From a virus (taxonomy: Duplodnaviria; Heunggongvirae; Uroviricota; Caudoviricetes), in the IMG/VR virus record IMGVR_UViG_2698536618_000023: 17,568 nt of DNA, one strand, 5' to 3'. The position numbers are program-made. Of the stretch, positions 9,001 through 12,000 are shown piece by piece (positions within the stretch are counted from its first letter, which is position 1; every line of letters begins with the position of its first letter).

Positions 9001-12000
9001 GCTGTCAGCGATAACCTGCCAGCCCTGCCGTGTTTCTCCGTTCTGTCCGGTCCACTGGCTGATCTGCATGTTACCCGCCACGCTGATAAGGTCGCCTTTT
9101 TCATGTCTCGCCACCGCGTCGGCCTGCTTACCAAATGCCAGGACTGATAGCCATAACGTCGCCTGTCCGTCCTGTGCCTGACTGCATGGCAGTGATACCG
9201 CCATACGCGCCAGCGTCATCGCTGTTCCCTTGCTGGTCTGTTTTACCTGCGGGTCGTCCACCAGCCGCCCGTAAGCTGCAATTTGTGCTGTCATGGTCTG
9301 CGCTCCTTGTTCCGGTACTCCTGGATAATCCCCATTGTCATATCGAATAAATCACATGCCGCTTTTTCTGCATCTTCCGCTTTCAGGTCATACAGCGTCA
9401 TGAAATGGTGAGCGATTGCCCGTGCGGATCTTTTGCTGATCCCTGTTCGGTTAAATCGATGGCGTGTGAGTGTGATTTTTTAGCGTGTTTCTCTGTCATA
9501 AAATTTTTCTCAGAGGAATAAATAAAAATTTATACCCAAAAGGTGTTCAACTGTTCACCTTTTGCTATTTCACCTTTAGATTCATAAAGTTAAGGGGTGA
9601 ACACTTTTTGTAAAGGTGTTCACCAACTGTTCACCCTGTTCACCCGTGACTGTTCAAAAATCATACAAAAAGGTGAACAGGTGAATACTTTGGTGAATAG
9701 TTTTACAAAAGTGTTCACCCATTAACATATTGATACTAAATACATTTATTGCAGGGTGAACAGTGGTGAACAGTTTTTCTATAACTTAATTTTTATCACC
9801 CTCATTTTTCACTGGTGCACATGACGGCAGCCAGTCCTCAGACTCATCCGTCAGTATCACGTTTGATCGCACACCTTCTTTAGTTCTCTTTTTCATATAC
9901 TCCCTGCCATATTCCGCCATTGCGCCTGGCATATCTGCACCGAAGCGCGTCAGTGTTACGGGCTTACTGAAACCGTGCGCCCTCATATACGAGAGATAGG
10001 CGTGATAAAGATAACGGCGTGGACTGAAAGGAATAATCTCAGCATTACCGACTAACAGGCCGTCACACATTACCGACGACATGAGATAGCCGCAGAAGTC
10101 CACCAGCGAATCCCCCTCACGCTTTATCGCCAGTGCTTCTTCTGATTTCTGCTGCTCATATAAAAGGCGTCTGGCTTCGTCCTGATCAGCAAACCGTGTA
10201 AGCAGATGACGAATCACTACAGCAAGCTCACCTTCTATTTTTTCCGGCAGCATCGGATCGCGTTCGTTTTCCGGTACAACCTCCGAAAAATTGAATATCA
10301 CACGACGACGTGAGATCCCCCCGCTGCGGTCACTGAATGACATGGCGCTGTTGTTAACCGCCAGCACAACCGCCGGAATACGCGTTGAGTATGGCGCTTT
10401 GTGTTTCGGGTCAATTGCCACCTTGTCACCGCCCGTAATGGCCTTTATCCCTGCACCATCACCCGCGTAGCGGGTCATATCCGGCAGAATAATCAGTGAA
10501 AAGCCAACCACTAATGCACGTTCCCTTGCATCCTCCAGTGCCTTCATGCTTGCCGATACCGTGTTGGCCTTACCTGCCAGCATGGTACAAATCTCTGCCA
10601 TAACACTTTTACCGCTTCCACCAGGACCTGTTACCTCAATGAATAACTGCCAGTCGTACCGGTTCGCCAGCACCATAAATAACGCTGCCAGAACGCGATC
10701 TGCCTTGCGGTCATTCTCAGCCACCGAACGGCGCAACCATTTCCAGAAATTCGGCGCATGTGTTGCCAGCGTTTCACCCTCTGCTGGTGGGGTGAACGGT
10801 AATTCACTGGCAATTAACAGCCAGTCATTTTTATCGTGTTCACGGAAATCACCTGTACGGGTATCAAATACCCCGTTACTGAATCCAATCAGGTTGCGGG
10901 CGGTATTCCCCATTACGGGTAAACTTAACTTCATGGTATCAACCGCCGATTTTATGGCGTTTTGTGAATAGCAGATATCTTCGTCAATGAAGATTTGCGC
11001 CATTGTGCGCTGTAGCTCTTTATCCTGTACGGGAACCCATACAACACTGTTGTAATAATGCACTGTGTCAGAGTCGGCGTTTATTGCCAGTTCGCCGCCA
11101 TAATGTGCCAGAAGAACTTCGCCGCGCTGGCTTGCCCCCATCTGGTTTAGCGCCAGTGATGTGGCATCATCACCTTTTCCCCGCTCTTTTTTCTTTACAG
11201 GCAGCTCAATAACCAGCCCGTCAGAAATGTTTTTGCGCTCAGTCTCCAGATAGTTACGCCAGTTCTGCCGCTCGTTATGGTGCATACCTTCGGGGTAATA
11301 GTCTGCGTCCTGTACGCCTGCCGCCGCCAGCTTCTGACCTATGCCTTTGACCATCACCTGATCGAGGTGTCCGGCCTTGTATATACGCGCTGATTTGCGC
11401 CCGTCGGGTACAATTTGCAGATTGCCAATATCTTTAAGTTGCTCATCAGCCAGCACGACGGGCGGTATATTATCTCCGGCAAGTTTTCCGTCCTGCTCCA
11501 GCCACTGTTTCGCGTGCGCCCACGCATCACTGCCAGCGAAAATAATCACTTCCGTATCGGCGTGCTTTTTCCCTCGAGGCTGTTTTTTTAAGTTCGGTGC
11601 GCTTTTCATTTCTTACCTCTGCTGATCATCGTCATGTGGCTACCGTATTCATTGCGGTAAATATCCCCGCACATAAATTCGGGGTGAGTTTTGCTACTGG
11701 CAGTTAAGCCAGTATTTTTTGATGCTATTGAATTAATCTCCTGAAGGAGTCGTCTTAATATTTATTTCCCGTTTATTTTTAGCCGTTATTGTTCGCCGCG
11801 TTTTTCTTCCTCCGTCATTAACCACACCGCCACATTGCTGGAAAGTTGTTTGATAAGTCCTGCAATAACAGAAAGGTCATGGTCGTCTATTTCTTCGTGG
11901 TTGCGTTCAATCATGCGGCTAATTACTTCGACCTGTTGCGCTTGCAGTGAGGCTTCTGCCAGTGTTATTTGCTGCATTACTGCACCCCCTTAATTTCATG

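Follow-up and report, generated by a model that had tools for sequence, protein, structure and literature searches.

The iteron field and its symmetry

The window analysed here is a stretch of 17,568 nt (IMG/VR virus record IMGVR_UViG_2698536618_000023, Caudoviricetes) that is an Escherichia coli island, and we have studied the DNA found immediately 3' of its rep gene. This gene (9786-11609, minus strand) codes for a putative replication initiator of 607 aa with a D5_N domain, a superfamily 3 (SF3) helicase core and a C-terminal winged-helix origin-binding domain. Its stop codon is located at 9786-9788 and only 13 nt separate it from the nearest copy of a short repeat (iteron), that ends at 9772 and belongs to the candidate origin at 9544-9772. 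This field contains 12 iterons of type I as known from phage P4, GGTGAACA/TGTTCACC, distributed in two inverted arms with a dyad at ~9658. A dense GTGAACA field at about 9541-9773, directly after the stop of the upstream gene, had been proposed from the sequence alone (hereafter the original prediction), and both its position and its adjacency to the stop codon were borne out, with a number of sites far above that of shuffled sequences.

The exact 7-mer GTGAACA was found 12 times in the whole window versus 2.25 ± 1.5 expected from 200 shuffles (shuffle maximum 7, n = 200). Nine of the 12 fall in 9552-9772, on both strands, and each of these nine is an exact copy of the 8-mer GGTGAACA. Three more copies of the 8-mer carry one mismatch, one at 9544-9551 (GTTGAACA, minus strand) and two at 9680-9687 and 9692-9699 (GGTGAATA, plus strand), giving a total of 12 sites. 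The "twelve or more" copies in both orientations counted in the original prediction are therefore reached with one mismatch allowed, the exact count being nine. At the 7-mer level there is also a 13th degenerate copy, the half-site TTGAACA at 9651-9657. No second cluster of GGTGAACA was found across the 17.5-kb window, where matches outside the field are scattered, single and have one mismatch. A full-text literature search with the iteron sequence retrieved unrelated primer matches and nothing else.

The 12 sites make six mirror pairs with start plus end sums of 19314-19316, which sets the dyad centre at 9657.5-9658, within ±1 bp. The gene-proximal arm (9672-9772) contains, starting from the side of rep, a tandem pair on the plus strand (9755-9762 and 9765-9772), an AT-rich spacer of 35 bp (9720-9754), one inverted site on the minus strand (9712-9719) and a tandem triple on the plus strand (9672-9679, 9680-9687 and 9692-9699, the last two with one mismatch). 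Between the two triple-iteron blocks lies the dyad centre, an AT-rich sequence of 27 bp (9645-9671) that holds the TTGAACA half-site. The gene-distal arm (9544-9644) is the mirror image of the proximal one, with a tandem triple on the minus strand (9617-9624, 9628-9635 and 9637-9644), a single site on the plus strand (9596-9603), an AT-rich spacer (9560-9595) and a tandem pair on the minus strand (9544-9551, with one mismatch, and 9552-9559). We refer to this layout as 2-1-3|3-1-2.

Tandem sites in the field are spaced by 8-12 bp, approximately one helical turn, and the GC content of the spacers and the centre is 0.27-0.37 versus 0.5-0.6 in the coding sequences on either side. Taken as a single strand, the 245-nt field gives one long hairpin (dG -59.1 kcal/mol versus -25.6 ± 3.2 in shuffles, z = -10.5), a different expression of the dyad symmetry. 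The 27-bp centre is a candidate site for melting and helicase loading. No DnaA boxes (up to one mismatch) were found within 9400-9900, and their count in the whole window was not above chance; the lack of a DnaA box in the field fits a self-contained initiator. A scan of 9250-9950 revealed no terminator, and hence none separating rep from the field, and no sigma-70-like promoter on the coding (minus) strand in the field; one weak promoter-like site was found on the non-coding strand. The scan lent no support to the field as operator or promoter.

The putative initiator protein

Pfam searches placed D5_N at aa 164-293 of the Rep protein, DUF5906 (the SF3 helicase core) at aa 327-435 and Pox_D5 at aa 498-594, and the helicase core matched the families D5_N, DUF5906 and PPV_E1_C. 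The helicase motifs are intact, with the Walker A sequence GPGGSGKS at position 328 and paired arginines (the arginine finger) at 434-435, and the ratio of nonsynonymous to synonymous substitution rates (dN/dS) was 0.10-0.16 in the comparison with three relatives. Residues 122-597 are 49% identical to residues 301-771 of the P4 alpha protein, while the first 121 do not align with alpha. The origin-binding domain (aa 499-595, encoded at 9825-10115 on the minus strand) is homologous to that of P4 alpha (PDB 1KA8, E=1.1e-23), the fold of which is a winged helix (PMC2777425). Its wing motif, TKEG-VRSN, is common to the homologs with GGTGAACA iterons.

Neither a Zn-ribbon nor a Toprim primase domain was detected by Pfam in the 607-aa protein or in other Reps of phage-inducible chromosomal islands (PICIs), whereas Zn_Ribbon_Prim and Toprim_3 were found in P4 alpha and in several long homologs. 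A structure-based search with the N-terminal domain of Rep gave a weak Toprim-like similarity. The homolog search with the N-terminal 165 aa retrieved mostly partial proteins and was used as the basis for a fold model, not as a census of domain architectures. The upstream gene had originally been called a primase-helicase; the SF3 core sustains the second half of this name, and we have dropped the first, as the sequence methods gave no primase domain and the structure search gave only the weak Toprim-like resemblance.

Relationship to the origins of P4 and EcCICFT073

The 8-mer GGTGAACA/TGTTCACC is the same sequence as the "ori type 1 repeat" that the P4 record (X51522) marks in both ori (9310-9413) and the cis-required replication region crr (4291-4590), the latter situated directly 3' of the alpha gene. 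In the alignment each arm of the field is collinear with P4 ori, that is, three tandem iterons, one inverted, a ~35-bp AT-rich spacer and two tandem, the proximal arm corresponding to X51522 9310-9413. The internal order of sites in the P4 crr units is unlike that of the arms. Thus, the field can be described as two inverted modules of the P4-ori type fused head to head.

The other close counterpart is the E. coli island EcCICFT073 (NC_004431 1377749-1389210, coordinates from the supplement of PMC6092414). Its gene order, with int, a helix-turn-helix gene, an icd-like gene, small open reading frames (ORFs), rep, a 289-bp gap, a small ORF, ssb and perC, matches that of the island in the window. 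Both Reps are 48% identical over their full length, N-terminal domain included, and the 289-bp gap has the identical 2-1-3|3-1-2 mirror layout with the iteron GGTAGACA. The rep gene and ori of EcCICFT073 keep a thermosensitive plasmid alive at 44 °C, and deletion of either rep or ori abolishes this effect (Fillol-Salom et al. 2018, PMC6092414).

Covariation of iteron and wing among relatives

We have compared 72 loci encoding relatives of Rep, taking one genome per species. A field 3' of the stop codon was found in ~600-aa homologs of the PICI type and also in several full-length proteins of the alpha type. The iteron varies among them, and GGTGAACA, GGTAGACA, GGTGGACA, GcGGACAG, GGTAGAGA, GGTGCACA and GGTGTATA were all found. 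The 2-1-3|3-1-2 layout is kept with other iterons at ten of the loci (L008, L012, L013, L015-L017, L043, L045, L054 and L077). When the C-terminal domains were sorted by iteron type, the wing segment tracked the iteron variant. Users of GGTGAACA all share the wing TKxG-[IVM][RQ][STY]N, including P4 with only 45% identity in the domain, and users of GGTAGACA, GGTGGACA and GcGGACAG, otherwise near the window protein, have a 5-residue insertion in the wing. The wing of the GGTGCACA and GGTGTATA users is G-Y-[YS]-Y-N. As far as sequences can tell, this correspondence suggests a readable specificity code.

Conservation was measured in eight orthologous GGTGAACA fields from Escherichia, Klebsiella, Citrobacter, Kluyvera, Raoultella and Pluralibacter. 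The mean pairwise identity was 0.90 in the iteron columns (70 of 96 invariant) versus 0.69 in the columns between iterons (49 of 139 invariant; Mann-Whitney p = 5e-10). The conserved layout, the tracking of iteron by wing and the conservation of the iterons are as they should be if Rep recognised the sites beside its own gene and selection maintained these. Among 5426 complete E. coli genomes searched, 114 had matches to the field, always chromosomal, and in 86 complete genomes belonging to several serotypes the field was at least 95% identical to that of the window. In O145:H28 strain RM12581 the identity is 100%.

A split arrangement of the iterons was found in the near relatives of P4, L018, L039 and L040. 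In L018 (Erwinia rhapontici; iterons at 283-375 and 6739-6841) an ori-type module lies ~2 kb upstream of alpha, and AT-rich cargo separates the gene from another group of iterons ~2.1 kb downstream. The compact palindrome was found directly after the stop of the full-length, primase-bearing alpha genes of L013, L036 and L054, so that the split of P4 looks exceptional in this sample.

Two of the relatives give hints of induction or activity. One is vB_KppS-Ant (16.5 kb, from an induced lysate and with "induced prophage" as source), that carries capsid, portal and terminase genes and a rep and field with 77% DNA identity to their counterparts in the window. The other is pZ1323HEC0475-3 (NZ_CP148328.1, L078), a circular record of 10,790 bp with an 86% identical Rep and the same 12-site GGTGAACA field; this may be an excised, replicating island. 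Deposited as a plasmid, it contains int, alpA, an icd-like gene and a protease-capsid fusion gene, a PICI content.

A candidate replication origin

We consider it likely that 9544-9772 is the replication origin of an AlpA-regulated island related to P4 alpha, of the kind of the E. coli EcCI and other Gram-negative PICIs, and that the gene upstream is its initiator. One reason to read the field as an origin is that the rep-ori unit of EcCICFT073, with the same gene order and layout, sustains plasmid replication. The arrangement anticipated in the original prediction, an initiator gene followed by its own iterons, is supported by the iteron identical to that of P4, the origin-binding domain similar to 1KA8, the match to EcCICFT073, and the covariation and conservation described above.

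A possible course of initiation can be outlined. Upon induction of the island operon, controlled by alpA, the winged-helix domains would bind to all 12 GGTGAACA sites. Through the inverted arrangement of both modules, the helicase subunits would then come to lie in opposite orientations toward the AT-rich centre and spacers, where hexamers could form, melt the duplex and leave in opposite directions as they unwind it, perhaps as a head-to-head pair by analogy with other SF3 helicases. The single strands might be covered by the single-strand DNA-binding protein (SSB) of the island, encoded just downstream. Primers would probably be provided by the host primase DnaG, since no primase domain is detectable in Rep.

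Genes of the island

The minus-strand order of the island is int, a hypothetical gene, alpA, rha, a decayed antA/icd-like region, three small ORFs, rep, the field, small ORFs, ssb, proQ/finO, perC copies, Q and YeeE/YedE. The tyrosine integrase, with the Arm-DNA-bind_3 domain of the P4 type, occupies the island end (16315-17568, minus strand). The AlpA-family regulator (15067-15270, minus strand) heads the unidirectional operon to which rep belongs, a module found in Gram-negative PICIs and P4-type elements. Between alpA and rep, the stretch 12345-14289 (minus strand) is covered by a 507-aa ORF with an AntA N-terminus, a middle part that looks of low complexity and an Ash/Icd-like C-terminus; the annotations of related genomes show pseudogene fragments of antA and icd-like genes at this place, suggesting that the early region of the island has decayed or been rearranged.

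On the other side of the field, at a distance of 45 nt, begin two tiny ORFs of 33 and 36 aa (9291-9499, minus strand). All that the first has in common with an 85-aa hypothetical protein found at the same position of EcCICFT073 is the 12-aa motif H-x-x-AIDLTE, and it may be a truncated or frameshifted copy of that gene. [quoted passage not shown] Further along are a YeeE/YedE thiosulfate-transporter gene (4838-6076, minus strand) and a phage Q antiterminator (4133-4531, minus strand). The transporter-Q stretch is found with 100% identity in other E. coli genomes.

The first part of the window (1-3372) is a different integrase-bearing element that abuts the island, with a KilA-N-domain ORF (1-564, minus strand) and a tyrosine integrase of 543 aa (1613-3244, minus strand). 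Its sequence matches E. coli E110019 with 100% identity, and only from 3372 on is there similarity to the genomes that bear the island. Coverage of 80% of the window is reached by none of the complete E. coli genomes in the collection, indicating that the window is a mosaic not represented there. Near-identical islands are located in complete genomes beside tRNA-Gly or between dinD and yicC.

Capsid, terminase (terS), psu, sid and delta genes were searched with Pfam and PHROGs among the ORFs in 3400-16300 and none was found. The related island of strain 2013C_3678, which ends at dinD, has no packaging genes annotated either. By the SatelliteFinder scheme the combination of int, alpA and rep corresponds to a "Type C" PICI-like element, perhaps defective (PMC10085698). 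With regard to the term satellite used in the original prediction, int, alpA and the rep-ori unit were found in this search and packaging or capsid genes were not, so that satellite status is unproven.

Alternative readings

Several points weigh against the field being a working origin. The homolog that has been experimentally tested, EcCICFT073, has a Rep only 48% identical and a different iteron. The steps involving a double hexamer and the host primase would rest on analogy. P4 needs two separated iteron regions, ori and crr, and a single cluster would thus not be automatically sufficient. The same protein-DNA contacts could control transcription of the downstream ssb-proQ-perC genes, as no terminator separates rep from the field. 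Finally, no packaging genes were found in the island and its early region seems decayed, so the origin may be intact and never used.

One alternative is that the field acts like crr, enhancing replication in cis, while a second iteron region at some other place in the element holds the true start. For P4 it is crr, and not ori, that follows alpha directly on the 3' side, and the near P4 relatives L018, L039 and L040 retain the split arrangement. Nevertheless, we regard this as very improbable: the 17.5-kb window, from int through the cargo genes, holds no second GGTGAACA cluster, both arms follow the internal order of P4 ori (three plus one, spacer, two) and not that of a crr unit, and rep with its adjacent region alone was enough for replication in EcCICFT073 (PMC6092414).

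The field might also be a structurally intact fossil in a decaying island remnant that no longer excises or replicates, without present function in this genome. The apparently disrupted antA/icd region, the lack of detected capsid, terS or other hijacking genes and a set of three core genes that is only "Type C", possibly defective, all point in this direction. Against it, rep is a full-length ORF that has kept its Walker A and arginine-finger motifs intact and shows a dN/dS of about 0.1, nine of the 12 iterons are perfect, the iteron columns are conserved well above the spacers, and the field is nearly unchanged in the 86 complete E. coli genomes of several serotypes. We regard a fossil as very improbable for this copy; the intact rep, the nine perfect sites and their conservation argue, at the level of sequence, for a module that was at least recently functional.

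Also very improbable is that the field works mainly as an operator, by which Rep would autoregulate read-through or control ssb-proQ-perC, or as a device for copy number or incompatibility by handcuffing, with the origin activity secondary or lost: plasmid iteron arrays often serve as operators too, and here rep is not separated from the field by a terminator and the next genes follow the field at 45 nt, but the coding (minus) strand of the field has no sigma-70-like promoter, the predicted binding protein is a helicase and not a repressor, and the architecture with its AT-rich spacers matches the experimentally defined origins of P4 and EcCICFT073 (PMC6092414).

Returning to the origin, a wider scenario can be drawn up that we offer with reserve, and that we think rather unlikely to hold as a whole. 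The compact palindrome of two inverted P4-ori modules would be the basic form in the family of alpha and PICI Reps, and the distant crr that P4 puzzlingly requires would mark it as a split derivative, in which one module was kept as ori and others, rearranged, came to lie elsewhere. The unannotated N-terminal pseudo-Toprim domain of the primase-less Reps would pair hexamers head to head or recruit the host DnaG instead of acting as a primase, and the correspondence of wing and iteron would govern cross-replication and incompatibility among co-resident islands.

Significance

This type of iteron origin was already known and has been tested experimentally in the related island EcCICFT073, and for specialists the present case is a refinement and a confirmation more than a surprise. 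Modestly new are the exact dyad symmetry, the equivalence of each arm to P4 ori and the presence of the compact palindrome also behind primase-bearing alpha genes. An unannotated intergenic region present in >100 complete E. coli genomes, many of which belong to serotypes of Shiga toxin-producing E. coli, is hereby marked as the candidate cis-acting origin of an island that carries perC. PICI origins also become linked to the biochemically defined type-I iteron of P4 and to its solved origin-binding domain. The 2-1-3|3-1-2 dyad rule together with the correspondence of iteron and wing could serve to predict which Rep fires which origin.

Comparison with known systems

The classical iteron plasmid origin (RepA/pi/RepE) was discarded as a model. 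It has direct iterons of 17-22 bp, a WH1-WH2 Rep and DnaA boxes, whereas the sites here are 8-9 bp long and in both orientations, the initiator is a helicase and there is no DnaA box. The core origins of SV40 (large T antigen) and papillomaviruses (E1) are similar in that short inverted sites surround AT-rich DNA and the helicase has its own origin-binding domain. Both SV40 T-Ag and MPXV E5 have been documented to form double hexamers of the head-to-head type (PMC12137749). The resemblance to SV40, papillomavirus and poxvirus D5/E5 is one of mechanism only, as the fold class of the binding domain differs (a winged helix here). The Staphylococcus aureus pathogenicity islands (SaPIs) follow the same logic, an initiator-helicase specific to the element with the cognate iteron origin behind it (PMC6092414), but their proteins and iterons show no sequence relationship to these, and pri and rep are separate or differently fused.

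With P4 the field shares the identical type-I iteron, clustered in both orientations and directly downstream of the initiator gene, and a homologous initiator with SF3 helicase and alpha-like winged-helix origin-binding domain. P4 differs in that it has only one ori module, at 4.5 kb from alpha, and a crr made of two direct repeats of 120 bp, while the window has its two ori-type modules joined into an inverted repeat and lacks a second region. A terminator lies between alpha and crr in P4, and none was found between rep and the field. Alpha includes the Zn-ribbon and Toprim domains of a DnaG-type primase (with the EGYATA motif) in the same polypeptide, which Rep lacks. That Rep, like alpha, would bind its iterons and drive theta replication without DnaA is hinted at indirectly by the covariation of iteron and wing and by the lack of a DnaA box in the field. 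A strict P4 replicon, with its ori and crr kilobases apart, is ruled out by the absent primase domain and the single cluster. A P4-like satellite in the sense of SatelliteFinder (int, psu, delta, sid, alpA, epsilon and alpha) was also rejected, as neither the psu-delta-sid operon nor epsilon was found among the window ORFs scanned, very small ORFs not having been scanned exhaustively.

The closest system is that of the Gram-negative PICIs. Their capsid-morphogenesis and small-terminase packaging genes (SatelliteFinder components iv and v) were not found here, and the island of the window differs from EcCICFT073 in lacking capsid or head-decoration genes and in carrying rha, antA, proQ/finO, an extra perC, the Q antiterminator and the yeeE cargo. 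The iterons also differ (GGTAGACA versus GGTGAACA here), with origin-binding domains only 34% identical. The rest of the module coincides: the origin is immediately 3' of rep with iteron sets flanking AT-rich DNA, Rep is homologous to the experimentally validated PICI Rep of EcCICFT073, and int, alpA, rep, ssb and perC are all on the minus strand and transcribed in one direction. By the features compared, the field belongs to the rep-ori module of Gram-negative PICIs, in a version with the type-I iteron of P4 and a predicted alpha-like origin-binding domain.

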